Positions 1,114 through 34,938 are shown, counted from the first letter of the stretch. The stretch is 64,000 nt of DNA from Psammoneis japonica (GCA_008632985.1 QPGO01000021.1:372001-436000); one strand, 5' to 3'. The notes: generated from the letters alone by a model not told the origin. Numbers and translations: made by a program.

Positions 1114-1416
1114 TGTCCTTTCTTGCTTCTCTGTTCTCTTTTACCGCTGTGATGTGATGTGTGCTTCTATGAGAGCTGAGAGCGGCGCGCCGAAAAAGCA
1201 CGTCGGAGGGAGGGATCGCGAGCGGCAGTGCTGAAACGTGTAGAATTATACAGGATCTTCTGATACCGCGAGCTCCTCTGTAAAGTTGAACATTCGAGCT
1301 CGAACTCCTGCCATCAAAAAAATCAAAAGAAAAAAGAACAAAAATGGTGTCAACCCGCGTTGTGTTAAAGCTCCTGTATTCATTGCTACTAGAGAGAGCC
1401 CAGCCATTTGTACAGA

Positions 1417-9595: not shown

Positions 9596-9899
9596 TTCGG
9601 CTTCTAAACTCCCCTAACTACGAAAGTCGGCGAATCAATTCCAATTGTTTCTTTTTTGTTCTTTTATCATGCTATCTAAACATTCGAGCATTCGTCCCCC
9701 CGGCTGATTTTTCTTATGTGTCTTCTATTGTTTTGGAAAAAATCAAATAATATCTTCAAAATTCTTCGAGGAAGTCCTCGCGCGCTGCGACCTGTCGGAA
9801 ATTCTAAAAGCGCGGTTCCGCGGTCGACCGCGGTCGAGCCACAACTAGCCCGGAACACATTTTCGGTCGCCACGGATTTTGCAATTTTTGCGCCGATCC

Positions 9900-12000: not shown

Positions 12001-12295
12001 ATTGGCTGTCTGTCTTTGTGCTCCATGAGAATTTGCTGACAGCTGTTTTTTCAAATTCATGTAGAATTCCTACGTGGCAAATGTACGGGGTATCTTTCCA
12101 CTTCGATTGCCGTCGGCTGCTCGTAGAATCTACGTAGGATCATACCATCATTGCTGCGTCATTCTCTCTGCGATTTTCGAATTCCAACATTCTCATCACA
12201 CACGCGTGTCATTTTCATCGCAACACCAAAACAACATACCGCAACGACAGTTGTTGCTGTTGTTAGTCCAGTCTGCTATTACATCCACTACAACA

Positions 12296-13816: not shown

Positions 13817-13861
13817 ACGAACTTGACGGGAGCGGCGTAAAAGTACCAAACATAGATACTG

Positions 13862-14110
13862 TAGTCTAATTTGATTTATTGACTCGCTGCGATTACTGTG
13901 CTTACTGCAGTGTTCTTGCCATAAATGGTGCGGTTGTAAGGTGCTTCTGTTATGCTGTTGATGATGAGTAAACGTAGAGAGAAACTTTGTGAGAGCTTAA
14001 GAGTATCAAACATTGATATAGTCTAATTTGGTTTATTGAATCGCTGCGATAACTGTGCTCGCTGCAGTGTTCGTACGTTAAATGGCGTGGTTGTACAAGC
14101 TACTTCTTTA
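13862..14110 (+). repeat. Diverged ~90-bp direct repeat (13862-~13950 and ~14019-14110) between convergent genes
   Basis: tagtctaatttg(a/g)tttattga(c/a)tcgctgcgat(t/a)actgtgct...ctgcagtgttc...taaatgg...ggttgta occurs twice. Confidence 0.75.
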
Positions 14111-14411
14111 TTCCTCCCTTTATGGCATGCTTCAACATTCTGTACCAGCAAGTCATGGAACCACGTGGATAAGCAGGAGCAAGCGCTCTTCATGCAGGCC
14201 ACAAAAGGAATCCACAAAGCTGTACACAGCCCATAAACCTAGTGGTAGTCTATAGAATAACACAAGTCAGCAACTGTAGAATTGTTTTCAGGCGCAACCT
14301 GCGTCGTCCTGTTGCTGCATAACGCGTCTTGACATCGTCCGCGTCTCTGTCAGACTCTCTCTCTCCCATCTCCACACAGTCGGCATTAAATGTACCCAAA
14401 ACAAGGATGTG

Positions 14412-15068
14412 CTATGGATTTGCGTTTTGAAGTTTCCGTAGTTGGTTTTGAACTTTTTGTATTTTGGCTTCAACGTCTCGTGATTGCGCATGAATGGAAT
14501 GCGGTTGCTGACGAGGTGGTGGGGACGAAGCGGCAGTTGAGAATGTCGCATGCCGACTTGGCTTTTGTTGGTGAGCTGGTCGGACGACTAGAGTATACTT
14601 TAACAACTGGACTCCATCCAACGCATCGATTGCGCTTCGTGCCTCTGTTATGGATTCGTATTCACAAAAGGCAATCATTCCTCGAGGTCGTGTCGAAATG
14701 TGGAGGCGTTGTATCGTTCCGTACTTCCCAAAGAGTTTTTCTAAATGCACTTGAGATATTCTTGGATGCAATCCACATATGTACAGAGTATTTGTATGAC
14801 ATTCCACTGCTGCGGGCTGGGATGTTTGTTTCTTTCCTGGAGATGATTCCCTCCTGTCGCCTGCTTCGTGCTGCTGCTGCTGCGTTTCTGAACAAGAACT
14901 TGTGTCGTGTACAAGCTTTTGCTTCTTGGCATCATCTGCGTTGTTAATATCTTCAAGTGATGATCTTCGAACGACAATATCATCATTGTCGACAGCATCC
15001 TTGTCATCTCGAGGACGCTTCAGTGACGGAAACGCATCGTCTACGGGGCTCTTTTTGTCAGTCGCCAT
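14412..15068 (-). CDS. RRM RNA-binding protein, RBM18-like
   Basis: RNP2 TLYICGL, HLEKLFGKYG, RNP1 RGMIAFCEY and C-terminal EAKIQKVQNQLRKL. Start MATDKK at 15068. Confidence 0.8.
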   Translation of the reverse strand: MATDKKSPVDDAFPSLKRPRDDKDAVDNDDIVVRRSSLEDINNADDAKKQKLVHDTSSCSETQQQQHEAGDRRESSPGKKQTSQPAAVECHTNTLYICGLHPRISQVHLEKLFGKYGTIQRLHISTRPRGMIAFCEYESITEARSAIDALDGVQLLKYTLVVRPAHQQKPSRHATFSTAASSPPPRQQPHSIHAQSRDVEAKIQKVQNQLRKLQNANP

Positions 15069-15279
15069 CGCGAAAGTTGGAAGTGTCGTGTTTTTCTTTT
15101 GTGTGTGCGTGGTGTGTGCCGTGCGCGTGCGTGGTGCGTGTTGGCTGGCTGGCTGGCTGGCGTTGGGCGGGTGTGCTTTTCTTTCCGTCTGGCTGTCTAT
15201 CCCACCTCTTTTGTATTGTAACGGTAAAATAACTGTCACAAAAATCCGAGAAATGAGAGAGAATTCCAAAAATTCCACG

Positions 15280-16284
15280 ATGCCGAAAAAACGCCGATAC
15301 AGTTACTTTTTTCAACCGGAAGGTGCAAAGACAACGACTGCAACAAAGTCCGACGAATCTGGCGGAAAGAATATGCTGCACCAGTTCTTCCGCGCAACAT
15401 GGTCGTTGTTCTCTCCTCGACGGCATCGTCTCCACCGCCTCGTCGGCTTTGCCTACCTTTTGCAGTTCATTGCAGCTTTGGCGCTTGAGTTGACTGGCCA
15501 AGGAGATTATCCACCTCCTCTTCTTTTCGTGTCGCTTCCCATTACGGGCTTTTTACAGGCATGTATCGCCAGCTTCTCTTTTGCGTTCCTACCCAACACT
15601 GACGGCAAGGTGCAGGGTTACTACAGCGACAAGCGCACAATTTCATACGATTTTCTCATGGAGAATGTGTTCTTCTCGGGCCTGCTTGCATGCCAGGCTA
15701 TCTACCTATCGTTTTCATCAGCGATCCGATCGGACCCAAGGCTACTACCGCTGGAATGTTTGTATGTATTTTTTCCTTTCCAGGTCGTACGGCCTTTGTT
15801 TCCCAAGACTTCTCTTCGCAAGAGTCTTCAAAACACAAAGGAGAAAACCCAAGATAATTCGGCATTTATGAATCGACATGCAACATTCAGTATGATATTC
15901 TACCTTATTGCAAAGCATATTGGAGGTTTCTATGTAAAGTATGTGGTATTTGCGGGAGGAAATTGGCCGGCCCATGTGCTGCGTCGCTTGGTTTTGCTGG
16001 GTGGGTGGGGAACGACAATCGCAATGTTTCTTCACACACTCAAGTTCAAGAAATACATTGGTCCCCGGCTTGCTATGCGTTGGTATACAGGATCGTTCCC
16101 TCTGTTTTGTTTGCTCTATGCACACATGATAATGTCAATGACACATCATTGGATTCTTGCTCTGTGTGCATTTGTTGGAATGGTGCTCAACCTTGGACCG
16201 CCGCACTTGTCTGCTCTGTGGCAAACAACAATGTGCATGTTGATGGTAATGCACCGACTTCAAGGACGCCTTCCATCACGATAG
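15280..16284 (+). CDS. Multi-pass membrane protein of unknown function, divergent from the RRM gene
   Basis: ATG at 15280 (MPKKRR), several hydrophobic segments and normal genic composition. Confidence 0.7.
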   Translation: MPKKRRYSYFFQPEGAKTTTATKSDESGGKNMLHQFFRATWSLFSPRRHRLHRLVGFAYLLQFIAALALELTGQGDYPPPLLFVSLPITGFLQACIASFSFAFLPNTDGKVQGYYSDKRTISYDFLMENVFFSGLLACQAIYLSFSSAIRSDPRLLPLECLYVFFPFQVVRPLFPKTSLRKSLQNTKEKTQDNSAFMNRHATFSMIFYLIAKHIGGFYVKYVVFAGGNWPAHVLRRLVLLGGWGTTIAMFLHTLKFKKYIGPRLAMRWYTGSFPLFCLLYAHMIMSMTHHWILALCAFVGMVLNLGPPHLSALWQTTMCMLMVMHRLQGRLPSR

Positions 16285-16429
16285 AATGTGACTTAAAAAG
16301 CGCCTTCTACTTTCTAGAGGGCCCCACTCGTAAGCACCTGGTCCTGCACATAGGTGGCCCTCTTTTGGAGTGGTCGGCACCCAATTTTCCAGTGCAAAAA
16401 TGTATAGTCCTACACCTTGATGCGACATT

Positions 16430-19050
16430 TTTTGGTTTTTGATGCCTGTCATGAGAGCATGAAACAAGCACAAAATGACAAGTTGCTTGCCAGTTGCCAA
16501 TTAGAAGCACCACACGGCCGCCACTGGTGCTGGAACTCTTCTTCTTCTGCTTTGAGGTTCCAGCCAGGATCAACTTTGATGTTGAGTCATGGCCACAAAT
16601 CAACAATGTTGACCATGGAAACCCGTCCCAACCATGTACCCTGTGCACTGCTGCAGGAGTGACAAAACTTGGTTTGCCTGTCATGTCTTGCTGTTTGGGT
16701 GTGTTGCCCCTTTCCAGATCAGAGGTTGTGCAAGTTGTTGCCAAAGGAGGTGACACACAAGCAACCAGGCAAAAGAAGTGGCATTGGACGAGTTCCCTTG
16801 GGGTGCCAGGATCATTTGGAGCAGGTGTCATGGTCAATTTGCAACTTTTTTTACACACACCAAACAATTGACGCCAAAATTTTGAAACACTTCATCATCA
16901 AATTTTGTCATTTAGCCAAAAGTCATGGCATGACACTCTCAAAGGAGTGGCGCCATTTTGGAGGGCTAGGAAGTTGAGATAAATCCACAGAAGAAAGGCT
17001 GGAAAGTCAACAGAAATCTGCAAACAAGGGCTGGGAAGTCAAAAGAAACTTGAAAGAAAAAGGTCATGAGGCTGACAGGAATCCAGAGGCACACCTCATG
17101 TTGGCAGATTGTGACAAACAAGCTGGCTGGACAAGGGCAAAGAAACAATCTCTAGAGGGCCTGTGGCCAAAGAAGCTGTCAAGGGTTTGCTGAAAGAGGG
17201 CATGGCAAGGTTGTGCCAGGGTCAGTGAGACAGAGTGTGTCTCTGTTGGCAAGCCATGGAACTCCAACGCAAGCCCTGGAAAAGATGGGCAAGGACACAG
17301 CTGAGCATGGAAGCGTGATGAAAGAGTTGAACAAGGAGTGAGTGTGTGTGTGTGTGACACCATTGTGGACTTGGGACAACAGACAGATGACCACACGGAA
17401 ACCATGACAAAGATCAGTGAGTGTGTCAGAAGAATGTTTTGGCCAGATGTGCAGGCACTGGTGTTTCTGAGATAGAAGAGAATGCCAGGGGAGCCAGGTT
17501 GTTCATTGGGAGGGCCGACACCATGAAGGAGAAGGGCAAAGCAATCTGGAGCAAGAAATGCAATCACCATGAAGCAGAGTGCAGTCTACAAGATGCAGAA
17601 TGCAAAGGCATTCAATGCATTTGTGGGGCAACGCACAAAGGCAATTTGTCACAAGCTTGAAGGAGCAGCAGAGTTTGCAAGAGTTGCAAAAAAGTGGGGT
17701 GTGGTGCACTGCTGAGCACTCTCAAGTTGATCTTGTTTGATGCAAATGATGAGACAAACCCACATGTCCAGGCAGTCAAGGCTTGGAAGCAGCCAGTGCT
17801 CATTTCTCAAGATGAAGGAGAAGTGCTTCAAGCAAAACTGCCACAGTGCCAGTTTGTGAGCATGGTTGCAATGGTGGAAGCATCCCATGGCAGGCCTCAC
17901 GGCAGAAATTGCCAAGAAAGATGGGCTCAGCAAGGGTGCTGATGATGCCCAGAGTGGTGATGCCAATGGAAGGTGGTGCGCCAAGGACCACTGGTGTGTC
18001 TTGAAAAACCCACATTGGCAACTCAAGTTGAGGGTTGACATGCATCCCATTTCAGCTGAGGAGGCCCTGCAGGCATTGGACGCCTGTGGGACCAGCCAAG
18101 AAGAAACCAGAGGGCACAAGTTTTGCAGCACAGAACAACCAGAAGAAGGTTGCATGCTGAAAGTGTGACAAGGTTGGATGTGGGAGAGGAGGAGTCATCC
18201 TGACAGCAATTGTTTTTTGTTGATGAAGTCAGATGGTGTGGGCCATGGGAGTTGATGGAGCAGTTTTTGATGTGGTGTTGGGTGGCATGGTTTCCAAGTG
18301 TCATCCTCCCATGCTTGATCATGTGCACAAGATTGGTTGATTGACAACGTGTGCAAAAAGAAGTGTGTGTGTGTGTGTGTGTGTTGGAACTTTGGGGTCA
18401 CAGGCAGTTTTTGCATGACAGATGGACAAAGTTGCAGTGCAAAATGCACTGGTGACTGTGGACAATGTGGCCAGTTTTAGTTCATGACTCAGACTGAGTT
18501 GTGGGTCATCTTGTGTTCACACTTTACCTTCTGCACCCACCCAACAGCATGGCAACAACAGCTGCAGCAGCAACAGCAGCTGCATGTTTGTGAGCCACAC
18601 AGAGAGTTTGGAAATGGTGAGGCTGAAAGTGTGCCAGCTGGCAAGCCATGAAGCACTCCAACATGGGGGGCACCAAGGCTTTGCAAACTTTTTTATGAAG
18701 ACACGACTTGCGTGCTTTTGAGTGAGAGCACACAAAGAGGGGCTTTGCTGGCAACAGAACCTCATGTGGGGGTGAAGCCTTGGAGCTTGGAGCAACACAG
18801 GGTGACTCATTCAATGGCACAAAAAGGTGGGGCTGAGATGCACAAGGGATTTTTGAGAGCTGGTGCAACAAACCAAAACAAAGCTTGGCCTGTGTGACAA
18901 CTCAACAAGTGCGAAGTGCTCACAACAGCATCACACCACCGTTTCCATGTCATCAACTCAGATGCATCTGGAGAATGAAAGCACAGAGAGAAAGCAAACA
19001 GCCGGTGAGACAAGGAGCACAGATTTGCTGGCACATGCCTGGCCTGTTGC
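16430..19050. mobile_element. Unclassified degenerate TE/repeat block, depleted of TpA and CpG
   Basis: Strong TA and CG loss, Tyr-free spurious ORFs, and (TG)n tracts at ~17340 and ~18363. Confidence 0.45.
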
Positions 19051-19054
19051 AACT

Positions 19055-19462
19055 CCAGGTGATGCGATGGGGGGTTCGATTCCCACCACCGGCCCATTTT
19101 TGCATTTGGCACATCAAATTCGCTCAAAATCGACTTTTTTCAAAATTGAAGGCCATGCGTGCACTTTGCACACATTTTGTTGTGTGCGCATGCCTTTCAA
19201 TTTTTGAAATGATCAAAATTGAAGGAGTTTGTTTTTTAATGTGCTAAACTGCGCCAAAAATTGGCCTTTCAAGTGATGGATTGCGCGTCACCTGGCTCCA
19301 GGTGATGCACACAGAGTCTCGATTCCCATCGCTGGCCCATTTTTGCATTTTCTTTGTGCACAGCACCTTTCGATTTTCCAAACGATCAAAATTCGAGGGA
19401 GTTCAATGTGCCAAACTGCGCAAAAAATCAGCCTCTCGAGCAATGGATTGCACATCACCTGG
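19055..19462. mobile_element. Two tandem related MITE-like units (19055-19295, 19298-19462) with CCAGGTGA...TCACCTGG termini
   Basis: Each unit starts ccaggtgatgc and ends tcacctgg. The interiors are homologous (cgattccca...ggcccatttttgcattt; gatcaaaatt; aaactgcgc...atggattgc). Confidence 0.6.
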
Positions 19463-20138
19463 GGCTGGAACAGGCCTGCACTCAACAATGGTGCAGAGGA
19501 CAGAATGACTGACAAAATGCAAAGGAGAGACAAGCCAAAATGCTGTCTCTGAGTGGGAGTTGAGCAAGAGGTGGCAGCCGAGCAAATGAGCACAGCAGAA
19601 AGAGCAGCCGTTGCACACGATGCGGAGTCCCGTGAGATGACAGATCTGGATCATCAAGTGAATTTTTCGAACCGCGCTCCTTTGTCTTCGAGTCCCGTGA
19701 GATGATTCATTCTTTTTATTCATTAGTGCAGTAAGGGTTATTGTAATCGAGTGAGTCAATCCCTTTTTGTGACCGGCTCGCGCGACTCTTTTCTGTTTTC
19801 ATTCGCATTTTTTTGAAATCTTCTTGTTTTGGCGCGCGATCTTCAAAGAAAAATCTTCTGCGGAGCGGCGAGCGGCGAGGGTTTTGGGTTTCCAAAATGC
19901 CGAATACAAGTAGTCTCTACTTCTAGTTGACTGTATGATAGGGCCCCAGTTCCAAAGGATCCCGAAAAGCTGCCGATACCTCATTTTTACCATTACCGTC
20001 TCGTATTTTAGAGTGACGTGCAGAACTTGGTGACGGTGGAAGCAGAAGAATCAGGCTACTGTATTCGTACACTGCCAACAGCAACAGAAGCCACAGCAAA
20101 ATCTTTGTAAGACTTCTATTTCTCAAAACCCATTGTCA

Positions 20139-23042
20139 ATGTCCTCCCTTGAAGCTGTGGAAGTGACGGTTACAAAACAGGGCCGGAAAAGTTATAGTAC
20201 TGTCAACTTTTCTACGAGAGATGGCACGGTCGGAAATGAAGTTATATCCGTTGACGATGTGCCCTCTGGCAACTACCTTGCACCTAAGGACTGTGATGAT
20301 GCTTCTACTGCTGAGGTTTCCATGGACTCCATTGAGAGTGACTTGATAGAGAGAAGTCGTTGCCGTTTTATGGTTATCCACCAACACGCTGTACTTTGTA
20401 TGAACAGGTGGCTAAAGCAACGTGTGTTTGTACCGCTCATGCTGCACGTTGGAAAGCATCCCTCTGTGTACGTTGTAGTGACGCTTCTGGTATCGATAGC
20501 AGTGCCATTGGCTGCGGTTCTGACGGGCTCATTTGAGGTTTTGAGTAACCAAGAGTCGTTCATCTCGCATAATGATTATCCGAAAGTCCAAGAGAGGTGG
20601 ATTGAAGCCACATTTTCCGAATTTCGGCCTGTGAGTGTACTGTTACATGCAAATGGGGAGAACATGGTTACTGTTGAGGGCGTGGAAAGAGCCTGGCACG
20701 TGATTGAGACTATCTCGACGGTTAATGGGTTTGACGAAATATGCGGAGGTGAAGGAAAAGAGTGCCTCCTTTCATCTTTGACCAATTTCTGGGATAACGA
20801 ACAAGCTTTTCAGAAGGAATTGATCGAGAGAGGCTATGAAGGCGTTCTAGATACCATGTCCGGCACCACCTATGCTGATGGGAGTCCTGTTGATAAAAGC
20901 ATCATTTATGGGAAAATGGATGCCAATGACTCGAGTCTGGTTACGACTGCTGCATCGTTTCGAATCATTGTGTTTCTCCCGGAATCCAAGACCGGAACGC
21001 CAGCCTTTGAATCGAGACTCATTTCAGCACTGCTGGAGCTTAATGATCAGTGGCATGATAATGAGTATGAATTGGAAGCCTTCTGCACCGCATGCGTTGA
21101 CAATGAGGTTGCAAGGTCTATTGACGAAGATATGCCGCTCTTTGGGGTTACCTTTGCGGTCATGCTTCTGTTTGCAGCTGCAATCATGACACGATGTCAG
21201 AAGAATTCTAAAGGGCAGTGGCTGGTTTCTTCACATGGACTGTTGGGCATAGGAGCGACCACTTGTGTTCTGTTGAGTATTGGGACAGGGTTTGGGTTCT
21301 GCGCTCTTTGTGGGATCCAGCTGACATCGGCAACTACGGCTCTTCCATTTATTCTAATTGGAATTGGACTGGATGACGCTTTTGTATTGATTGGAGCATT
21401 CCGTCAAACACAACCGGATTGTGCTCTCTCTGAGCGTCTGCGAGGAATGGCCGAAGTAGCAGGACCAAGTATTCTTGTCACCACACTGACAGACATGGCA
21501 GCTTTTGGAATCGGAGGTCTTGTTACAAGTATCCCAACTCTTCGATATGTAGGATTCTACGCAGTCGTATCAGTGTTTGTGGACTTCGTCTACCAAGTAA
21601 CGTTCTTCATTGCATTGATCGTACTCGATCAGCGCCGACAGGCTGCTGAGCGTAGAGATTTCTTTTTCTGTTCAAAAGCGCTAAATCGAGAGGATGATTG
21701 TGATGATGCTGACACAATGCCGAAAGACCATAGGAGATCCAAGATCGACTTCGTTGTGAACAAGTACGCCACCTTCCTTTTGCATCCCTTGTCCAAGACC
21801 ACTGTTGTTGTGGGATTTACCTACCTGCTAGTCGTGGGTATTGTCGGGGCCACTCAACTGACAGTAGAATTCGCCGTGACCGAACTGACTCCGTCCGACT
21901 CCTACATTGACTCGTTTTTCAATGCAGACCGCGAGCACTACTCGGAAACTGGAGGAGGCACGCCAGGAACACTTCTCTTCAGTGACCTTGACTTGTCTAA
22001 AAGTGATGTGGTTGATGCTGTTTATCAGTTTGTAGATGAATTACACGGCATGGGTTTCATTTCAAGACACCCTTCGCGATTCTGGATTGATGACTTTCTC
22101 AATTTCACTCAAAGCGTCGGGAACTCTTCAGAGCCGTTCGTTGAACAGCTTGAAGATTTTCTGGAAAGTGATGTGTACCGAAAGTTGCATGGCCAAGATA
22201 TAGTGCGAGATCCTGATTCAGGTGAACTTATCGCCTCCCGTGCTGGCGTAACTTTGCCTTTTAGCTATGATGAGCCAACCGTCGATTTGGTAGACTTTCT
22301 CGTCAACCAACGACAACTATCTTTGGCCCAACCAGTCAACCAAAGAAGAGTGGCAAATGGAAGTCCCATACCGATGTTTCTCTATTCTCCGGAGTTCGTG
22401 TTCTTTGAACATTTCCGAAAGATACCCACGGAGATGACAAGCGCCCTGGTTTCGAGTACATTGACAGTGGGAGTAATTACATTCTTTTTCTTACCTCACA
22501 TCAGTGGAGTTGTTTTGGCACTGGTCATTGTTGCGGCTGTCAACGTGGAGTTGATGGGTATTATTTACTTCTCGGGAAACGCAATCAGCAGCTTGACAAC
22601 CTTCATCTTAGTGATTTCGATTGGGCTGGTGGTAGACTACTGCCTACACATTATACATGCTTACCTGCATGCTCCGCCAATGGTGTGCAACAACCGAACA
22701 GATCGAGCCGCGTATGCGTTGAAGGAAGTTGGAGTCTCTGTCTTTCTTGGTGGCGCTTCGAATTTTCTCGGAATCATATTCCTTGCTTTTGCTTCATCTC
22801 AAGGTGAGTCGTCTCCTCAGATCAAGCGATGGGGGTTTCGGCATTCAAAAATGATCACGAAGACTCACATGCGTGTTCTCCTCTGAATAGCCGTCAACAC
22901 AATGGGTGTTTTGTTTCTGTCAGTTGTTGTGCTGTCACTAGCACACGGTCTGATTTTCGCGCCAGTCGCGTTATCGTTGATCGGTCCAACTCGATCCTTT
23001 CACAAGACGCAGGAACAAGCTGAGAAGACCTCGCAAAAATGA
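20139..23042 (+). CDS. Patched/NPC1-family sterol-sensing-domain (RND) membrane protein; intron 22804-22890
   Basis: SSD motifs LPFILIGIGLDDAF, GPSILVTTLTD and SIGLVVDYCLHI. The spliced last exon gives HGLIFAPVALSLIGP and a TGA at 23040-23042. Confidence 0.9.
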
Positions 23043-23379
23043 AGAAAGTGCATGCCAAGGGCGTGTTGCTGCGTGGCACAGGTGCCATGTAGCAAAGATA
23101 ATGTTGTTGTTTTAGATAAAATCAAATTTTGTTTGCTGTTGTCAGAGAAAAATGCTGTCAGTGTCGGTGGGAGCCTCCAACATTTTTTTCAAAACGGAGT
23201 CGTCATCATCGCTTCTTTTGTTGAAATGCAATGGATTTGGAAGTTGTGTGGTCAACACATGATGGAGTTGGTCACAACTGCTCCCACATCCCATCCCATT
23301 GTTCACATCACTCTTGGTTGGCCTTTTTGGATTTGTTGCTCTGGACATTGCATCACAATGCATGTGAGAGCTCAAGACC

Positions 23380-24165
23380 ACACTCTCTGGCAGTCTCTGG
23401 GTTCTTTTGGTTGTCGAATGTTGTTCTTGCAGATTGCACCCACACCTTTTGATTTCTGACTTTTCTTTTTGTGCTGTGGCACTGTTGGGGGGCCATCATT
23501 GTTGTGCCACATCCACTGGCTCCACTCACCATGCACAAAACAAAATGCAAGCCCCCAGTCCTCATTTTTGTGAGATCACACCCCTGGCCACTGCTTGGGG
23601 CATGGTTGTTCTGGTGCATGCTGGACTTGAAGCTTGAAGCTGCCATTGCAGTTTCTTTGCTTCAGCTGCAGCAAAATGAACATTGCTGGATCACATGCTG
23701 ACACTCAGTGCAGACAAAGACAGTGCTCCTGCTCCATTTTGGCAGTTTTCTCAAGAACACACTGTCTGATCTCTGGGTTGGGGGGGGGGGGGGCTGTCTG
23801 AGGTTGTTCTTGCAGCAGATTGCACCCACACTTTGTGGCTCCTGACTTTTTTTGTGCACCACCATTGTTGGGCCATCATCATTGTTCCACCAAACGCCCA
23901 TCCACCCACCCTGCCAGGAAGATGCCTTCCAACATGATGACACACCCACAGCTCAATCACCACACACCAGAAGCTCACTTTTGATGACAAAACAAAATGC
24001 AAACCCAAGTCCTTCTTTGCAAGATTGCTGGGCATGACACACCTGGTGCACTTCCCATCCCTGTCCCACCCTGCCAACAATGCTCATCTTGGTGCATGAC
24101 AACATGCACCACTGGCATGCTCTTTTTTTGATGTGTGCCAGACTTGAAGCTTGAAGCTGACCATT
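23380..24165 (+). repeat. Diverged tandem duplication (~23380-23650 vs ~23760-24165) inside a TpA-free block
   Basis: Shared segments: gttgttcttgc...agattgcacccacac, gggccatcat, aaaacaaaatgcaa, gacttgaagcttgaagctg. Confidence 0.65.
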
Positions 24166-24169
24166 GAGA

Positions 24170-26500
24170 ATTCCTTTGCTTTGAAAGCAACAAAAAGTTG
24201 TGCATTGCTGGAACATGCCAATGCTTGGCACAGACAGGCAGAGCTCTTGCTCCACTTTGGCAAGAAGGCACTGACTGCACCGCAAGTTGTGCCATGCAAA
24301 GCAGAGCACAGCACTGCCCAAGATTGGCTGCAGCCTCCCACTTTGTTTTTCTGTGCTGCAATCTGAGCAAGTGCAAGCAGGACATTGTCCCGCACGTGAG
24401 TCAGGCAATGTCCCAGCTGCCTCCAGGGTGCAAAACAGAGCTGGAGTGAGTTGATGTGCTGTTGTGCTTGAGGGTTTGGCCAGGCTGGCTGTGGGGGTGT
24501 GATGCTGAGCAAGGCAACCCAAGTCAATTGCTGGCTGCTTGGCATGGAATCATCCTTCTGGTTGGCCAGCCTGTCAAGAGACTGTTGCTGGAGCAAAAAT
24601 GACTTTTTGAGCTGTTGGAAGACTCGCCATCAAATGTTGAACAAAATGTTGCACAATTTGACTTGTCATTGGATGGTGTGACGTTCAAGACATGAGGCCA
24701 ATTTTTGCAAAATTTGAGAGATTTTGAGTGAAGTGCACAGCTCTCCAAACAAGTGCCCAGCTCTGTCAAGCATGCCATGACAGATGACACCACTTTTTGG
24801 TGGTGCATCTGGGCTGTTCTTGGCTGCTTGAAATTCATGCTGGCACCTCTGGACATTGACTTGGAGCATTGACATTGCAGGCAAACCAGCCTGCTGTTGC
24901 ACTGTGTGGCAGAAACAACAGGAATCATTTGAAAATGTTGCAAAAGCCATCATTGACATTTCACACAAAAGGCAAAATGCCAAATCATGCAGAAATGCAC
25001 ACACAATGTCATGCAAGAAGGTGAGCAGAGCTGCTGGCTTTGCAAGAAATCAATTGAGGTGTCATCTGATCAAAGGCATTGTTGACATTCAAGTGCCAAT
25101 GGGTGGACAGACTGACAACAATCATTTCTGGTGCTCTTCTGCACAATGACTCTGAGAGCCACAATGACTCCTGTTGTGTGATGGCATTCAATTAAACCTC
25201 ACACAATGACAGAGAGAGAATTGTTTGCTGTCATGGCAGCTCTAAAAAGTTTGGGAACAATGCTCTCCTTGGTTGTCTCACGCAATTGCACACACTGTGC
25301 ACATGCAAAAAAAAGGTGGCCCTCAACAGCATTGTGTCAAGGATCACCACAATTTGGCGGCTGATGTCTTGAGTTGCCAGCCTCTGTGTGATGCCTTCAC
25401 AACAGCAGAAGCCATCAACACTTGCACCATGAAATTCAAAACAAAACAGGACAAGAGCCTGCTGCAAAAAGCTTCAATGTTGCTCTCACAGGCATTCCAC
25501 GCATGGCAAAACACAATGGACAGCATCTTTGCAACAGCAATGAAGTCATTGTCCCAGAGTTGTTGCAGGAGCCTCTGGTGACTGGGTGGTGCCACACTTC
25601 CCCGCATCATCCTTGCAGGACAAAAAACCAGAAACGTTCATTGCCTGGCACTTCACAGTCACCAGCAGGAGCCAGTGTGAAAGCTGCAGCAGAAGATGCA
25701 TGCATCAAGAGCAGTGGCAAATGCCAGAAAAAAATGTTGTGTGATCAAAAATGGGAAGTTTCCAAAAAAGGTGGCAGAGATGATCCCTCAGGCTCCTGTG
25801 CAAAAGGAGGGCCCTGCAAAATTCTTGTCTAAAAAAGAAAGCAAACACTCACGCTGCAGGTGGTTGCGACAATTGACCCTGCAACTGGGTGGTTTGAGAC
25901 AGCAGAGAAGTGTTCACCAAACATGCAAACACAACAGCAAACATCATTGCACCAGAACAAACACCATTGTGCAGATGTGCATGACTCAAAAGGTTGCACT
26001 CAACAGAGGTGTCACACAACCTTGTGGCTGGCTTCAGCCAAATGATCCAAAATGACTCAATGGATGACTTCAGAAGAAGCCCACAACAACAAGCAAAATA
26101 AAACCACACACAAATTGCGATGGTGGATTGAGCACAACAGACAATTGGCAATGTGATGTGTGTGAGTCATTTCCAGTGCAACACATGGAAGCCCAAATCA
26201 ACAAAGTCAATCCTCAGAGCACTGTGCCCTCTCAGTGGCTGCATTTGCCATGCAAGAGCTGCATCGTGCACTCCCATGTGTGCAATTCCTGTGCTGCCTG
26301 CACTTGGCAGAGATGCTGTGCTGAACATGGCACACAATGTCAAATGGGGACAAATCCCAGATGGAATGCACAGGCTCACATGGCCCTGCCAGAACTGCCA
26401 GCACCAACAACAAAGGTGTGTTGGGCACATGAGGTGGTGTGCTGCCAGATGCATGCAACCTGATGATGCAGGTCATGCCTCACAGCAGCAAAACATGCCA
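24170..26500 (+). mobile_element. Degenerate Ty3/Gypsy LTR-retrotransposon pol (RT-RNase H-integrase)
   Basis: RNase H remnant TERELFAVMAALK and DHHNL/AADVLS. Integrase zinc-finger region VIVPELLQEPLVTGWCHTSPHHP, core TIDPATGWFE and GRDAVLNMAHNVKW. The RH-then-IN order is Gypsy-type. Confidence 0.75.
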
Positions 26501-27690
26501 TTGCATCATCAGCAGTTTTGTTCTTGTGGGAGAGCATGCAACACTCACTTTGCTGATGACTGGCAGATGTGCCATGCACCACCACATGCTTGTGTCACAC
26601 CATCTCTCCTGAAAAAAAAATCAAGCAAAACAAATGTGCAACAAACCAAGTGCAGGCTGTTGCCTGCATCAGCTGGCATGAGTGAGCACCATTGCCATCA
26701 CAACTGGGCCAGGATTGTTTGGCCAGCAATTGTCTGAACATTTTTTGGAATGAAGTCAGTGCATGAGATTCCACCCATTGGGTGCCACACATGACCAAAT
26801 GTCATGAACACATGTGACATGGCGCAGCTGCGAGTGGACATCATGGCATGCTGTGATCATTGCCACATGTTCTGCATGCAATGAGGCCCTGGCTCTGACC
26901 AAATGACACCAGCCCACATCACTTGGTGCTGCAAACATCACACACAAAACCCTCACATGCAATGAGTCATTTCATGAAGCTGGTGGCTGTGAGCATGAAT
27001 GTGCATGTGCGCACCTCCACTGCAGCTGTCACATGCAGCTGGCTGCATGGCTCAACTTTTGTCATGAAAGCTGTGGGCCTGCAGCCATGTGGTCTGGTGG
27101 TGACCAAGGCTTCATCCCCCCAGGTGCACACTCCACTGGCCTCCAGAGCAGCGATGTTGTGCTTTTGTTTGGTGCCTGCCACCAACGTCTCCCTTGCCAC
27201 CTCACCAGTGAAAAACTCCATTGTGTCAACTGAAGCCAGCCCTTTCCACCCATTTCCTGTTGTTTGGCCTGTTTGTTTTGTCTTGTTTTGGCATCTTTGA
27301 TGACAACCACTTGCAAAATGGGGGGCTGGGAGGACAGGCCCCAGTCCGGATTTTAGAGAAAAGCTCCTGCACTTCTTCTTTTTTGAATGGCAGCTCAACT
27401 TGCAGCATCCCTGCAAATTTTCACATGGCACAGTGCCGCCTGCCTCTTTGGAGAAGAGCCAGAGTGCATTTGCCACACAGCCCATTTGCCGCAGCACACA
27501 CAGGCATCGTTCTGTGATTGTCAAGCCAGCCAGATGCACGTTGAAGTGCAAGGAGGAGTTGATGGTTTACATTGCACTTGTGCCAGCAAAAAACGTGCAA
27601 AGAGCTGTTGCTCAATCTTGCTTTCACCCAAAAAGAGAGATGTTGCCTGTGTTCGGCCGCCATCACCAGGAATCCGGAGTGTCCAAGCTC
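26500..27690. mobile_element. Unclassified TpA/CpG-depleted repeat block continuing from the Gypsy remnant
   Basis: Same compositional signature; ends abruptly at the CTAG-rich tract at 27690-27714. Confidence 0.4.
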
Positions 27691-28039
27691 TAGCTCTCTA
27701 GTAGAGAGACTAGAGTTGCGTTGGCGGTGAAAGAAGATGACCGATGACTCCGGGGCTTATTTCTTTGCGAAATCGTCACTTTGAAATCGTCACTAATAAT
27801 GCTACAGTACTGTACTGTACTGTACTTTTTTGCTCTAGACATTTCTCAGAGCATAAATAAATACTGTATGTTTCTGGTCACTGGTCATCGTCATCGACTA
27901 GTGTTGATCCTCGGCATTCGGCATCCCTGATCCTGATCCCTTGCTTGGTACGGTTGTTCCCGGTGCGACTACGACTACAGTACCGGTACAAGAAGAGGGT
28001 TACGAATTGAGATGGAAGAGGCTCTCATAAGTCTGTGAA

Positions 28040-31000
28040 ATGACAATCCCATTTCTTTTCTTAGTTGCCTTCGCAGCTGCGGTTCATGCAGGTCCATCCG
28101 GACGGTGTATCTATGCATTCAACGATGAAAGAAGGAATTTCGGTTTCTGTGACATCTTGCTTCTGAACCGTCAAGAGTATGTTACCATAGCATATGATGG
28201 TCCTGCTGGAGTCTACGGCGACATCTGTGTCCCTGGTGGAGGTTCAAGCGAAGCCGTAAAAATTGACAATGGGTTGGTTGTCAATGGCGTCCTACGGGCA
28301 GAGCCGCTTGCGAAACTTCCCAATGACCCTAATCCTCACTTGGTCTTCGATGAAATGATGACGACTGCTGACCTAACCCAAGAGATCGCAGCTGCAGAAA
28401 ATCTGTCTCGCGACCTCGCAAGAAAAGAGTGTGATGACGAGATCAGCACACTCACATCGGGAAACTTCAATGCTGACACGTACCCGGGAAGCGAGGCTGT
28501 GATCTGCGTCAAAGAGGATGCCGAAATAAACACGGACATCAAACTTACCGGCTCAAAAAACATCATCTTCAACATCTATGGAAAAATGGAAGTTTACTCA
28601 AAAGTAGAGGTGGCTGGTCATCTTAAAAGGCGTAACGTGATTTGGAACCTACTAAGTGACGACAACATTGTGAAAATTGATGGTGGCGAGCTTGACGGGA
28701 CAGTCCTGGCACCAGGACTTAAAGTGAGCATTACAAATGGCAGAGTCAATGGCCAGATCATTGCACGTGGGGCGATCGACCTTGATGGCAGCTCAGTTTT
28801 AGACTGTCCCAAGCCACACCCGACTCTTGGTCCAACAAGAAATCCAACAAGACCGCCGAGTCGGCATCCCACGAATCCTCCAACTCCAACTCCATCTAAA
28901 TCCCCGACCAAAGCACCAACACCATCGCCAACCTTGCCCCCAACGCGTTCACCGACGATATATCCATCTGCCCAGCCAACAAAACGCCCCACAATGACGC
29001 CATCCTCTCCTCCAACACCTGTTCCGACCATGAATCCTACGTCAGAGCCAACAAATCGGAAAACAGACGAGCCAACACAGTTTCCGACCGAAGGATCAAC
29101 TCCTGCGCCTACACCACCTCCAACACCTCATCCGACCAATTTACGCACTCGAGAGCCAACCGAATTTCCAACAGTAGCACCAACGATACCACCTTCGGCT
29201 AGACCAACAAAACTTACTATGCCACCGACCGCTGCTCCGACGCATTTACCGACTTCTTCTCCTACTCAAGATCCTACAGAGACCCCAACAAGCCCAATTG
29301 CCACTTCTTCTGCTAAGAAAACGCAAGTGCTCTCTGCTGCTCCAACGCCATCACCTACATCTCTTTACAAGAGTGCACCTACTGATTCTCCGTCAGATCG
29401 ACCAACGAAGACTCCAACGGCAGCGCCGACAGTGTCGCCTACCAAAATGCGTGGTGTTCCTTCCACCAATTCTCCAACGTCAGCCCAATACGATGAAGTT
29501 ATATGTGGAAAGTGTTTTCGCAATGGGTGTTTTAAAGAAGTTAACTCAGCCAACGGGCAGAAATGCTTGAAGTTTGAGTGTGCCACAAGGTAAGTCTGGA
29601 TTTCTTATGTTTTCGAGCCCTAAGGTACCACCGGATGTCATCTCATGCCACAATACATTGCTTCATCGTCAACATTCCGTTAGGTTATCTTGCCCAAGCT
29701 ATCAGTCAATGTCAGACTTTCGAAATACCACGCCCCCACTAAGAACGAGCACGCCATCAGTGAAGCAGACGGCAGCACCAACACCAGCTCCAACCCCCCT
29801 GATACGTGGAACTGGCCTTGCGTGTAGGCAAGACGAGGAGTGTAAGTCAGGCACCTGTCGAAGCGGAGTTTGCATGGCGTCCCCGGATTGCTATCCAGTC
29901 AAGCATGAGTACGGAACACCGTTCGACGAGAATAAAATCAACCTGGTGTTTGTTGGTTCAGCGTTCGACAAGACCGGTCACGACTTCTGGAAGACACAGG
30001 TCTCACAGACGTATGATTACATGAAAGGTTACAACATGTTTGCTGAACAGAATGAGGATTTGAACTTCTTCCGTGTAGATCCGAAACAACTGACTCCGTC
30101 ATTTTGTGCAAGTAGTTGTGCCGGGATTGAACGCTTGCTTTGTTGTGACGAAATGAGAGCTAAGCAGCTGTCGGATAAATGTTTTCCTAGCGGGGCAAAT
30201 CTCCAGACGATTGTTCTTCACAATTCGGAGGTGTATGGCGGTGCGGACTACACCCTTCAGAACTTGGCCACAATGTCCATACATCCGCGTGGCGCAGAAG
30301 TAGCTGTACATGAGCTCGGTCACTCGCTATTTGAATTAACCGACGAGTACTCTTACGGGCCTGGTACGGACCTACATCCCAATTGTGCGCTGACCAGTGA
30401 CTGCTCAAAATGGTCTGACCTCATAGGACGTGAGCTAGACGGCTACAACAAAGTAAAGTGCGAGCCAGGCTGCAGAAACAACAGATTTTACGTGGGCGAG
30501 CACTCGTACATGAGCGCCTTGACCAACGATGTCGGAGCTGTGAACGACCGTTACACCTGCTGCACCTATCTCGCCTTGACGAAGGTAAGTCACCTTATGA
30601 ATCAAAAGAAAAGGAGAGGAACATTGAAAAACGAAGCAAAGCTCAAGCTTTTTGATGTTTTTTTTTTGTGTGTAGAAAATGCCGTCGTACTGCGATGTTT
30701 TCGACTTCGAACCAAATTACTTGGTGAACTTCTGCGAGGGTAACGACTACCAGAAATACGGAAGTTACAACGAGCAACCCAAACTATTTATAAGCACCGG
30801 AAAGGCCTTCAAGGACAAGTCCAAATACTTGTATGTATCAAACCCCTTGTTGGTGGAGGTGCACCTGAATCACAAAAAGGACCGTGCCTTCGTAAAAGGC
30901 ATGCCGGTACCATCCTCACCGGGGTTATACCGAAAGGAATGGGTGATTGGCGATTTCAAGAGACTTTCTCATGCCACGACAGCAGGGCTGTCTTCAGCGG

Positions 31001-31221: not shown

Positions 31222-32619
31222 CCCAATTCTACTTTTACCAGAAAAGTACAACAACTATAACCTGTTACTGGTTGAGATTCTTGTAGTTATGGTCCACTCA
31301 CAGCAACGATGGGAAGCTAAGAGAAGCGATTCCTGCAAAACTTAGTCGACATTCAATCAACCGCAAGGCCTTGCTTTTGTTTCGGGTACACCCGAACGTG
31401 GTTCTCCCAGCCTCTATCGAAGGCAATGGAGTTCTGCTAAGGATGAAAGTTGTCTGCAGCAGGAGGGAGAGAAACGTTAACAATTCATATTCCATCATTT
31501 CCCTGGTCGGAGGGTGTCCCAAACGACCAACCACAGCATATTACGGGCTGGCGCTATAGTCTGAAGGACGTGCAATGATGAAATCAAGGTCATGATACTG
31601 GCATGCACCTCGTGATGGACTTGAAAATGCTGGCAAGATATATTGCTTCGAAGAAGCACAGGTACGGGACGACTCCCCTAAAACTGAAAACTGTGCGAAG
31701 GTGAGTGAATCGAAGGCGGGACGAGCCATCATTTTACAGTAGTGCTCGAAGGTTTATAAAGGTCTGTCGTGCTCGAGAGACTGTTCTGTGTTCTTTCGGT
31801 TTCCCTCCGACTTCAAGCTCGGTTGTTCAACTCTTCGATGCGTTTCTACCGGTGCTTTCTACTTTCTGCTACTTACTCTATGCTCTCTCTCCAGTAGCTA
31901 GAGTAGAGAGAGAGTAGCTAGCTCTACTAGTAGAGGGCCCCACTGCATCTAGAGATAGAGTAGCTGTTGCAGTCCGCACACACACACCGCAGACTCACAA
32001 ATCCTTCCACAACAAGCGCTCGCGGCTTGTCGCTTGGTGCTGCGTCCCTCCTGCAGCAGTTGCATCACCGGGTGTGGCAGCCATTGTTGTTTTACAAAAG
32101 CTTTTCTCCAGAGAAGCTGTTCGTTCTTGAGAGCACTGTGAGTGTCATCCAACACGCTCCAGCCCCGCAAGGGGTGTGCCGCACATGGCAGACTCCCACC
32201 ACAACCAGGTGTCGAGTGTGGAAGTTGAGCTGGCAAAGCTTTGAGTCATGAGTGCCAATTCTCAGCACAAAACACTCACACAACTTGACCCACCATGCTG
32301 TGGTCTATGCTGGGAGTTTGTGGAGGAGAGCTTTTGTGGTGGAGTTTGCATGGGGCCCTTGGTTCAAAGGCAGATTCCACGAAAATTGTGTTCAGCGTGC
32401 GGATGGTCTGGGGTCAGGAGGAAGACATTTTGATCCCAACAGCACGATGGAAGAAACTGCCTTTGGTGGCTAGCATTTTGCAGCATCTTGCTTGAAGATG
32501 TTGTGTTTGGAGCTCAGTGAGCCATTTCCAGGCTTTGGGAGCCAGGAGCTGCTGAAGATGACAAGCTTCATGAGAGTGCTTGTGGCTCTGCCAAGGAGGT
32601 GTTTTTCACAACCAGTGTC

Positions 32620-34745
32620 ACCTTTCATGCAAAATTCACCCATCTGCGCAGTTAAGAAAGACAACAATGCTGCCAACAAAGGGAAAGAGCAAAGAAAAAA
32701 TAAAAATGTGGGGGTGGCCTGCAACATCATGGGCATCGTTTTTTCTTGGTGTCCGTGGAACTGGAAGTGAGGCTGGGAGCTCATTTTTGAAGTCATGTGG
32801 AGGTGACCTTGCTGAGAACAACAGGTGTTTTCTGGTTTGGCAGCTTGCAGCAATGCATGAATCATGAGAGTTTTCTGCACTGTTCTTTGGTGGTGTTTGG
32901 CAACACTGCACCAATCTGACATTTTTTTCTCAAATGTTTGTTGAGAGCAATTTGTGCTGGCTCTGACACTTCCTCTTCCTTTTTGCCAAAGACAGAGAGG
33001 CACCTTTTTCACTTCATCTCTCCCACACATTTTTGCACCTCTTGACTTCCAATGCAAAAAAATTGGCAAGGCAGACTGAATGACTGAGAAAGGTGAAGGA
33101 AAGCTGGTTGCATTGCCTGCTGGTAAAGAGCAACCCTGCTAATTCTGGGAAGGCACTTTCCACCACACTTGGCTTTGTGGAGTCCGGCACAAGGTTTTGC
33201 TTGCTCTCCTCATCCATGCATGCTGCAGACTCCAGAAATTGAAATGTCTGTGAAGTTGTGCACTGACATTTGCACCAGCATTTGCACACATTTCAATGTC
33301 CCAACTGCTGGCAGAACCATCATAACAGCATTGTGGCACTTCCTCCATGTCTGCCCATTGATGCATCAAGAAGCATCTTCTGCTGGCCTGGCAAGCACTG
33401 TGCAGTGGGGGAGTGCATTGAAGTCCCTGGAGCTGCCATTCTTTTGTTGCTGGCACCAACCACAGTTGACCATGATGTTGCTTGTTTTGTTTTTTTGTTG
33501 TTGTCATTCTGCATTTCCACCATGGTGTTCAGGAGTGGAGTTTGGTGCAAGTTTGGAGTTTGCATTTTGTTTGTGTTCTTTTTCAGCAGTGGTTTTGCCA
33601 GGCAGCCCCATTTCTGCCAGGTTGTTTGCTGCCGCTGGTGACAAGGTGCTCCATTTGCCAGCTCAGGACTGGCCTCTTCATCAAAGGCCAATGTTGTCCT
33701 CTGTGCCAGCATTTTGTGAAGGAGAACTTTCATGTCAGAGTTTGCATGGGGCCGCTGCTGGAGGCACCCATGAACTCCATGATTGCAGGCATGCCAGTGG
33801 GCAGCAATCACAAAGCTTTTGATGTCAAGTGTCACCTTGCTGCTGGAGATGCCATGTGTTGGAAGTTCAATGAGCCACAAGCTGCACAGCATTGCTGGGC
33901 TTGTTGGAGGGGGGGGGCAGCCCACTGAAGGTGAGCTTCCTGACAGCATCAGGTGACTCAGCCAAAAGAGTCACATTCACCTGCAATTAAGGAAGATGGC
34001 AATGCTGCCAATGCTGCCAATGAAAACAAAGAAAAGCAAGAAAAAAAAAACAGCTGTGTTCACCAACAAAAAGATGGGTTCACCATTTCACATGTGGTTG
34101 TGAATGACACAAGAAGAAAAGCTGGGAGCCCCTCATTTTGAAGTGATGCATGGGGGGATGACTTCACCACAGCACACAAATCTGAAGAGTGTTCTGTGCT
34201 TTGCTTTTGGTGGTTGGCAACATTGTGGCAATCCAGTGCTTTTCTTGAGTGATCAACTGCACTCCACCACTGCAGCTGATTTTCATCTTTTTTGACAAAT
34301 GCAGAGAGATGCCCTCCTCACTTCTGCCCATTCCCAAGCTTTTGTGTCTTTTGACTTCAGTTGCAGAAAGATTGGCACAAGGAAAATCAAATGATTGAGA
34401 AAAACAGCACCAATGTGGTGCACCAGTCTGGAGAAACAACTCCACTTTTGGAAAGAGGTGGTGTGTTGTCTTTGCCACCCAGCTCTTTGTTTGTTCTTGT
34501 GGTGTCTGGGGGCTCGAGCTTTCGTTCTCGTTGTCTGCAGAAAATGAGATTTTGGGAGAATCATGTGCAGACATTGACACCAGCATTTGCACATTTCAAT
34601 GTCCCACCTGCTGGCAATGGGAATGGTGTGTGTGTGTGTGTGTGGGGCTGTCAACCACAATCCTCCATTGTTGTTTGTTTTGTTGTTCGTTGTTGTCATT
34701 TTATTTCGGCCATGATGGTGTTCGTGGGAGCGGATCTGGCGCAAG
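32620..34745 (+). repeat. Diverged ~0.8-0.9-kb tandem duplication (~32620-33550 vs ~33950-34745) in a TpA-depleted block starting ~31970
   Basis: Collinear matches: caatgctgccaa, gctgggagc...cattttgaagt, ttgacttc...attggca, accagcatttgcac...atttcaatgtccca(a/c)ctgctggca, gttgtcatt...atggtgttc. Confidence 0.7.
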
Positions 34746-34938
34746 AAGGTTGGAGTCGTCCTCCCATTGTTCTCGTCCTCTTTCGCAATGCCGCACGCGT
34801 GTCCAAAAGATCGCGCGTTTCGAAACGTGCATCGCGTTCCTGTTCCTCATTGTCTTGGCCATCTTCAATCTTGCTTGATCTTCATTATCAATCTGGATTA
34901 TCATTCTTTGCCTCTATGCGAAAACACGTTGTTGTGTA

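Follow-up and report, generated by a model that had tools for sequence, protein, structure and literature searches.

Near-complete loss of TA dinucleotides from mobile-element blocks in a 64-kb window of the diatom Psammoneis japonica points to directional TpA hypermutation

The stretch of the diatom Psammoneis japonica genome analyzed here comprises 64,000 nucleotides of one strand (GCA_008632985.1, QPGO01000021.1:372001-436000; hereafter the window, with positions counted from its first nucleotide). It alternates between ordinary genes and blocks from which the dinucleotide TA has almost vanished. The genes located between the blocks are nearly intron-free and encode a Patched/sterol-sensing protein, a cullin, an ice-binding-like protein, a PPR protein and an aldo-keto reductase, among others. 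Seven low-TA blocks, together with 422 bp devoid of TA at the window's left end (72-494), represent 41% of the window. An earlier note, made from the sequence alone, had listed TA-poor repeat blocks that are nearly identical to those computed here. The focal block, at 23118-27690, holds 6 TA and 34 CG in 4573 bp, and no origin is assigned to it. The block at 9960-11900 has 6 TA and 24 CG in 1941 bp, and that at 32001-34700 has 9 TA and 25 CG in 2700 bp. The block at 16951-19700 belongs to a family of about 10-30 copies, as seen from a read depth of 680-1900 versus ~62, and the block at 43901-47600 carries the inner member of a direct repeat (43964-44102), the unmutated outer partner of which lies at 43705-43840. 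The block at 50001-58550 is a composite of several pieces in which part of the CpG is kept (40 TA and 243 CG in 8550 bp). The youngest-looking block, 61958-64000, shows a TA observed/expected ratio (O/E) of 0.05-0.13, a CG O/E of 0.73-0.87 and a GC content of 55-61%, and continues past the end of the window.

Dinucleotides were counted along the sequence and their O/E values compared inside and outside the blocks. TA has an O/E of 0.05 inside the blocks versus 0.54 outside, in the intervening genes. For CG the values are 0.35 inside and 0.95 outside, for CA 1.81 and 1.20, and for TG 1.71 and 1.21. The longest TA-free run of the window extends over 2076 bp (23117-25193), almost exactly where the absence of TA had been noticed by eye (~23120-25190). 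At the TA rate found outside the blocks, the chance of such a run is exp(-76.1). The next runs measure 1358 bp (56810-58168) and 1255 bp (26099-27354). The edges of TA loss are sharp to about 50 bp, i.e. one or two bins of 25 bp. In the dinucleotide profile the limits of five blocks come out slightly differently (9801-11900, 23101-27650, 32001-34850, 43901-47650 and 61951-64000). The deficits and gains balance: 874 missing TA and 932 missing CG amount to 1806, and the excess of TG and CA is 1863. No comparable deficit of AA or TT exists in the blocks (AA +91, TT +22), and the AT deficit (-210) is a knock-on effect of the TA loss. Since erasing TA also erases the stop codons TAA and TAG, long false open reading frames (ORFs) run through the blocks. 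As the earlier note had remarked, these ORFs are nearly devoid of Tyr and rich in Cys: stop-to-stop ORFs of at least 150 aa contain 0.0-0.6% Tyr and 3-11% Cys, against about 2-4% Tyr in large gene ORFs such as those encoding Patched and the cullin. A 375-aa open frame at 16-1140 (minus strand), with 10.4% Cys, passes from normal sequence into the TA-free stretch 72-494. Erasure of stop codons may have produced this frame, which would then be no true ORF, or the process may have spread into part of a genuine gene.

We take the blocks to be dead mobile-element DNA, including at least one Copia retrotransposon and one recombinase-bearing retroelement, the rest being too degraded to name. A Pfam scan of the 26 block ORFs of at least 150 aa gave an RVT_2 match below cut-off and a weak HTH_74 match, and nothing else. 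Among 111 ORFs of at least 70 aa from the five older blocks none of the matches was credible (noise only, E≥0.0066), and RVT_2 was again the sole match among 80 ORFs of the two younger blocks plus the ORF 16-1140. The RVT_2 match lies at 57152-57868 on the minus strand (E 1.5e-5; 25.2 bits, cut-off 31.6). A phmmer search with this ORF returned 3655 homologues at E≤1e-3, 36 of them at E≤1e-30. With the best 150 homologues as queries, tblastn places a polyprotein remnant at 56073-58325 (minus strand), aligning to about residues 1116-1626 of polyproteins of 1400-1700 aa. An RVT_2-type reverse transcriptase is followed there by RNase H inside the polyprotein, the arrangement that defines Copia (Ty1) elements. 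The long terminal repeats, gag, protease and integrase of this element were not found in the window.

The second element lies in the youngest-looking block. An uninterrupted 392-aa ORF at 62388-63563 (minus strand) belongs to a large unannotated family of ~380-aa proteins (629 matches at E≤1e-3, the best with 72% identity). On metagenome contigs, 526 of 580 pattern matches were confirmed as relatives of this family, and these relatives sit on contigs of about 6 kb. In all 12 metagenome loci of at least 5.5 kb whose ORFs were examined, an ORF of about 860 aa precedes the gene. This ORF matches RVT_1 below threshold (21.1 and 20.3 bits, cut-off 29.6), and its C-terminal part is present in the window at 63143-63982 on the minus strand (tblastn, E down to 2e-57). 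The 380-aa protein itself has no Pfam match and gave no hit at E≤1 in a PDB profile search. Its conserved motifs, ...RPGEYT... and ...GRWRSDEMLRYL..., are those of what we take to be a tyrosine recombinase, and the element at 62388-64000 is presumably DIRS/Ngaro/PAT-like, neither assignment being confirmed by Pfam or PDB. The element appears to be a retroelement common in aquatic environments, whose tyrosine-recombinase-like gene escapes current domain libraries. The idea that TA loss is confined to non-genic DNA derived from mobile elements agrees with these two retroelement identifications and with the TA O/E of ~0.54 in the intervening genes.

The coding remnants indicate in which direction the sequence has changed. 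Every Tyr codon (TAY) contains TA, so conserved Tyr columns provide a polarised test. In the Copia remnant, 168 of 233 conserved columns are still identical, and none of the six conserved Tyr is kept: three are replaced by His (CAC), one by Cys (TGT) and two by Phe, the latter at the two least conserved columns. The TGT codon, at 57379, stands in a column where Tyr occurs in 94% of 101 homologues. Among 13 conserved Arg, four are now Cys and two are now Trp, which is the signature of CpG decay. In the recombinase-like ORF, 192 of 218 conserved columns are identical and one of four conserved Tyr is kept. The others have become His (twice) and Cys (once), and a near-invariant C-terminal Tyr is now His (CAC). 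The intact family is not equally poor in TA: the environmental relatives of the recombinase-like gene (loci L001-L080) have ordinary TA content without exception (80/80, O/E 0.38-0.88, versus 0.05-0.13 in the window's copy). The earlier note had named equally TA-poor intact family sequences as grounds for refutation, and its proposal passes this check.

A third line of evidence comes from a 145-bp direct repeat that straddles a block edge. The outer copy, at 61813-61957 (plus strand), flanks the block on its outer side, at the promoter end of the gene 59111-61615, and keeps four TAs. The inner copy, at 62174-62313 (plus strand), is located inside the block edge at 61958, and all four TA sites are changed there, two to CA and two to TG. 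The same comparison shows one CG to CA and one CG to TG change and a single reverse site (inner CG, outer TG). The second edge-straddling pair behaves in the same way, with 43964-44102 mutated inside the block and 43705-43840 unmutated outside. This may mean that targeting stops at a chromatin boundary and does not depend on sequence identity; alternatively, the outer copies may be distinct fragments of greater age. The fate of the Tyr codons, the intact relatives and the TA-keeping paralogue agree that TA was converted directionally to TG or CA, as had been proposed at first sight, and that the low TA content is not the native composition of these elements.

Similar replacements are found in environmental proteins. 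At five columns of conserved Tyr, the JGI metagenome protein P0272 reads H,C,H,Y,C and the window reads H,Y,C,H,H; P0272 is a second, independently mutated copy from independent data. Among the 150 best Copia homologues, three (P0174, P0207 and P0219) contain no Tyr at all and show C/C/D, C/C/H and F/-/C at the conserved-Tyr columns. When three conserved-Tyr columns were required, none of 40 Copia homologues qualified as hypermutated, and the replacements in these three proteins were seen under a relaxed requirement. They are short ENA or JGI metagenome fragments with no source organism assigned and are seen at the protein level only. Their sequences suggest that the same hypermutation occurs in uncultured organisms.

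Both strands are affected, as the earlier note had supposed. The TG/CA ratio ranges from 0.96 to 1.2 per block, and the sense-strand changes at Tyr codons include T>C, giving His, as well as A>G, giving Cys. The flanking nucleotides matter. Of 89 TAs that survive in the blocks, 46 stand in YTAR (Y, pyrimidine; R, purine), 40 in mixed contexts and only 3 in RTAY. Relative to the density outside, survival is 0.31 for YTAR, 0.077 for the mixed class and 0.01 for RTAY (chi-square p = 2e-19), i.e. about 99% of RTAY sites have been lost. A strand-independent model based on the 3' neighbour yields hazards of 0.35 for TAA, 0.80 for TAG, 1.98 for TAC and 2.25 for TAT (likelihood-ratio chi-square 90.6, 3 degrees of freedom). 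Under strand independence the class survivals also yield about 0.06 for the mixed class. The inside/outside ratio is 0.13 for TAG versus 0.04-0.05 for TAY. The intact retroelement relatives have 19% YTAR and 27% RTAY, and the baseline for the motif is thus fair. The target is 5'-TAY, which equals RTA on the opposite strand, and TAY is affected about four times harder than TAR. Because of this preference, the few surviving TAs are mostly found in TTAA, CTAG and TTAG.

Paralogous segments inform on timing. Eleven pairs were found in the window, two self-palindromes were dropped and nine pairs were compared. CA-versus-TG swaps constitute 21 of their 56 adjacent double mismatches, with at most three in any other class. 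Two of these pairs belong to the focal block, 24123-24262/23606-23744 with seven CA/TG double mismatches and 23792-23890/23409-23510 with two. Such swaps correspond to one ancestral TA or CG resolved differently in each copy, and the mutations therefore postdate the duplications. Reads from other family copies of the block 16951-19700 depart from the window at two places, with TA instead of TG at 17449 and TG instead of CA at 17794-5.

CpG loss does not accompany TA loss everywhere. The older blocks have lost both dinucleotides, unlike the blocks at 50-58.5 kb and 62-64 kb, where TA O/E is 0.0-0.15 and CG O/E is still 0.3-0.9. At 62-64 kb in particular, CG O/E is 0.73-0.87 at a TA O/E of 0.05-0.13, so that TA loss can be separated from CpG decay, as the earlier note had argued. 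No block in the window has lost CG while retaining TA. Several edges show the CG-poor domain set back inwards by 200-700 bp from the limit of the TA-poor domain (near 9960-10200, 19000-19700, 32000-32500, 34500-34700 and 43900-44250). Because TA is lost where CG is kept and because the edges of the two footprints differ, two processes have been at work, a fast erasure of TA over a wide footprint and the ordinary, slower decay of methylated CpG, whose footprint is narrower. Decay of 5-methylcytosine (5mC) at CpG accounts for the CG deficit of 932, not for the TA deficit of 874. TA erasure is also far faster than ordinary decay, since more than 90% of the TAs are already gone from an element whose protein is still 88% identical to its family at conserved columns and which retains its CpGs.

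Sequencing data exist as three runs of one sample, and the runs were compared over 9500-29499. Run X1 and the assembly share one sample, and the run probably represents the assembly's own data. Its 31-mer depth is about 62 throughout this region, and in the focal block it is 63-69 versus 62.7 in the adjoining Patched gene. Contigs built from X1 span 19321-23793, 23780-25135 and 25142-29047 with two differing letters per contig, and no TG/CA bubble at half depth is seen over the focal region. TA-free sequence present at the depth of the genes and in near-exact contigs implies accurate reads, which makes a basecalling artefact very unlikely. The X1 reads thus carry the TA-free sequence, which answers the artefact concern raised in the earlier note, and they are not an independent confirmation. 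At 23103, within a same-locus comparison, the window has TG and the X1 contig TA, and TG/CA swaps between window and contig occur at 10223-4 and 11506-7 in the block 9960-11900. Run X2, labelled 'DNA?', covers genes only and is RNA-like; one of its contigs skips an 80-bp GT..AG intron at 13259-13338. X2 gives no cover inside the blocks within 9.5-29.5 kb, a blank that does not count as silence.

We consider that the blocks underwent targeted, directional transition hypermutation at TpA, and we give this reading as a whole a probability of about 0.6. In mobile-element blocks, the A of 5'-TA-3' would be changed to G, with the change stopping sharply at the block edges. Such an A to G change acting on either strand turns TA into TG or CA. 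The underlying step could take place on the DNA of targeted chromatin, where the adenine of TAY would be deaminated on either strand and fixed as G at the next replication. That the process acts in place on integrated DNA is likely. More tentatively, and with somewhat less than even chances, the enzyme might be a TadA/ADAT2-type deaminase that is brought to silenced chromatin and converts adenine to hypoxanthine. For the TadA-family enzyme put forward in the earlier note, the preference for TAY over TAR fits; CA is not consumed, and a process directed at T predicts the same pattern.

Several points weigh against this reading. The focal block is without a recognisable mobile-element protein: it gave no match by tblastn with 150 Copia homologues or with the ORFs of the 12 metagenome loci of at least 5.5 kb. 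Its mobile origin is inferred from its composition, from partial multi-copy depth and by analogy with the other blocks. In it, 24841-25507 occurs in about 10 copies (depth 657), the remainder is single-copy at the 31-mer level, and internal degenerate duplications are present. When amino-acid changes are classified by codon, the scheme itself is biased towards the TA and CG classes, and even so TA loss is assigned to only 7 of 26 changes in the recombinase-like ORF and 12 of 65 in the Copia remnant. Run X1 stems from the assembly's own sample and its platform is not on record. The same-locus evidence consists of three sites only (23103; 10223-4; 11506-7), and the swaps at 10223-4 and 11506-7 may derive from CG as well as from TA. 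Action in place falls short of proof: both identified elements are retroelements, and editing before integration could give copy-specific TG/CA patterns. TA being its own reverse complement, chemistry directed at A and chemistry directed at T leave the same sequence. Finally, a Pfam scan found no deaminase domain among the 14 large gene ORFs of the window.

A comparable process has been described in a chlorarachniophyte alga. Mettrop et al. (bioRxiv 10.64898/2026.01.13.699255) followed mutation-accumulation lines of Bigelowiella natans and located 231 of 302 new nuclear point mutations in an integrated giant-virus region and a virophage region, where rates were ~6e-7 per site per generation. 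The changes were A>G or T>C in 20/20 cases in the virophage region and 210/211 in the nucleocytoplasmic large DNA virus (NCLDV) region, all of them on TpA. The preprint also reports that TpA-depleted genes are enriched for reverse-transcriptase and transposase domains, and proposes an ADAT2-like deaminase as a candidate. The earlier note's statement that no eukaryotic system of this kind is described is therefore outdated. As far as the preprint goes, the two cases share the conversion of TpA to TpG/CpA, with TpA depletion paired with a gain of CpA and TpG, and the confinement to discrete foreign or mobile regions in an otherwise normal nuclear genome. An ADAT2/TadA-like enzyme is suspected, and unproven, in both. 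The two cases differ in several respects. B. natans belongs to the Rhizaria whereas P. japonica is a stramenopile, live mutation is recorded there and a historical footprint alone here, and the targets there are viral insertions whereas those identified here are retrotransposons. TpA rho is given as 0.45 in the virus region, compared with a near-saturated TA O/E of ~0.05 in our blocks. The preference for TAY over TAR was measured here, and the words 'context', 'flanking' and 'trinucleotide' do not occur in the main text of the preprint. CpG decay with a narrower footprint is superimposed here, and 'CpG' is absent from that main text. By analogy we lean towards the same kind of process in both algae. 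In B. natans, saturation is still distant and the main text mentions no effect on CpG; the identity of the two processes is thus something we infer, a further point against the reading as a whole.

Repeat-induced point mutation (RIP) of ascomycete fungi offers another comparison. There too, transitions riddle mobile DNA until its genes are dead, leaving sharp-edged compositional blocks beside normal genes. However, RIP changes C to T mostly at CpA and thereby creates TpA, whereas TpA is removed here (TA O/E 0.05). RIP also sets in where sequences are duplicated, and it depends on a DNA-methyltransferase-like protein. In the window, by contrast, the outer repeat copies are unmutated and mutated segments are single-copy at the 31-mer level. 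The earlier note had spoken of a repeat-restricted 'reverse RIP', which would imply triggering by homology, and this part of its proposal is not supported: the focal block is mostly single-copy at the 31-mer level (depth 63-69), an argument that is weak because hypermutation itself erases 31-mer identity, and in both edge-straddling repeat pairs only the inner copy is mutated. Diatom transposons carry CG methylation (PMC9998398). Decay of 5mC at CpG explains the change of CG to TG/CA in the older blocks and cannot remove TA.

Natural TadA/ADAT2 enzymes act on tRNA. DNA editors derived from TadA are reported to prefer YAC (ABE3.1) or YAY over YAR (ABE8e-YA) (PMC12528748). The A-to-I change read as G, with a pyrimidine both 5' and 3' of the A, resembles the preference for TAY over TAR, although such editors also accept C 5' of A, while CA is the accumulating product here. 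ADARs are animal enzymes that act on RNA, prefer G as the 3' neighbour and produce clusters on one strand. They share with the present case the A-to-G clusters, the preference for a 5' U and the aim at repeat-derived nucleic acid. They differ in that TAG is relatively spared in the blocks and that here the DNA itself carries the fixed changes, which involve both strands, with TG/CA ~1 in every block.

Other explanations were considered. A silencing mark on the T of TpA in mobile-element chromatin, such as 5-hydroxymethyluracil (5hmU) or a further oxidised or glycosylated form made by a TET/JBP-type dioxygenase, might now and then pair with G during replication, or be misrepaired, and give T>C, read as A>G on the opposite strand. 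TA being self-complementary, the results on both strands and on TAY (=RTA) fit such a mark equally well. Nevertheless we hold it to be unlikely. 5hmU normally pairs with A, and near-saturation would need a strongly mutagenic derivative. We know of no report of 5hmU in diatoms, which also counts against it, and no TET/JBP domain was seen in the Pfam scan of the window. In dinoflagellates, which like diatoms belong to the SAR group (stramenopiles, alveolates and Rhizaria), a TET/JBP enzyme is reported to make 5hmU that silences transposons, and in C. cohnii 5hmU preferentially replaces T in TA and TC (PMC11572971). TC is not converted here as TA is. Editing before integration appears quite unlikely as well. 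In this case the RNA or cDNA of a retroelement would be hyper-edited at UA/TA during each cycle and then inserted, much as APOBEC3G acts on retroviral C. Both identifiable targets are indeed retroelements, sharp edges and element-sized blocks would be expected, and copies within one family differ in their TG/CA patterns. However, editing of genomic RNA alone would give one direction, whereas both strands are changed about equally here, with T>C as well as A>G at Tyr codons. To our knowledge, the loss of ~99% of RTAY sites lies far beyond the effect of one replication cycle. The outer copies of the two edge-straddling repeats are untouched, and at 23103 window and reads differ as TG and TA at the same locus. 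The B. natans process, moreover, is described as acting in real time on integrated single-copy viral DNA (bioRxiv 10.64898/2026.01.13.699255).

Compared with targeted TpA hypermutation, a technical artefact, in which a modified base is misread and the true DNA retains TA, is very improbable. Heavily modified DNA does cause systematic errors in signal-based basecalling, and assembly and supporting run come from one sample without a platform on record. Yet the X1 31-mer depth of ~62 and the long exact contigs are unlike error-prone signal-based reads, the neighbouring genes read normally, and conserved-Tyr changes occur also in the metagenome proteins P0272, P0174, P0207 and P0219. Native avoidance of TA, as an escape from a TA-cutting nuclease or from TA-targeted insertion and not by mutation, is hardly tenable. 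The uninterrupted 392-aa ORF at 62388-63563 would suit it, but an open frame is expected there anyway because TA loss deletes TAA and TAG stops; conserved Tyr, including those of near-invariant columns, are replaced by His or Cys, and 80 of 80 relatives have ordinary TA content. GC-biased gene conversion was rejected, as it would not be TA-specific and the change of CG to TG/CA goes the opposite way. APOBEC-type deamination of C concerns the wrong base.

This is the first case of a TpA-erasure footprint in a diatom, near-saturated and with an extended motif. Our literature searches found no paper on TpA loss in diatom transposons, and natural A:T to G:C rewriting restricted to a single dinucleotide and to selected regions of a eukaryotic genome was previously represented, in the literature found, by one preprint on one alga. 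The footprint in a diatom means that the process is not peculiar to one lineage. We know of no enzyme for TpA-directed rewriting of DNA. The richer read-out obtained here, with TAY over TAR, strand independence and a footprint wider than that of CpG decay, constrains both the enzyme and its targeting, and diatoms are a group with genetic tools where this enzyme could be sought. If the proposal is true, a natural DNA adenine deaminase would be of interest to base editing as a counterpart of laboratory adenine base editors. It is also conceivable, though doubtful, that an ancient defence common to diatoms and chlorarachniophytes, and perhaps to the whole SAR group, directs a DNA adenine deaminase to the chromatin of silenced mobile or viral DNA. 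Such a defence would change TAY to TGY on either strand until no Tyr codon and few stop codons were left. Its footprint would extend beyond the 5mC domain and would not depend on it, and the defence would be, if true, the mirror image of fungal RIP. There is also a consequence for annotation: TA-erased blocks escape transposon detection, Pfam being blank here bar one sub-threshold match.

Some observations on the genes between the blocks may be added. The cullin gene at 38072-40195 has its best match to diatom transcripts and proteins, with 85% identity. The assembly contains a single N at position 7548 of the window. The nearby ORF at 7841-9592 (plus strand) carries an F-box as well as a 2OG-Fe(II) oxygenase domain. 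This domain matches the prolyl-hydroxylase-type family PF13640 and not TET/JBP, so that the ORF is no candidate for thymine modification. An ice-binding-like adhesive-domain protein with a PT repeat is encoded at 28031-29590 (plus strand), with moderate depth in run X2, and the next ORF, at 29571-30740 (plus strand), is peptidase M64-like. The Crinkler N-terminal domain is best known from oomycetes. The 835-aa ORF at 59111-61615 (minus strand) shows a weak match to this effector N-terminal domain (E 5.2e-5; 24.4 bits, cut-off 24.6).

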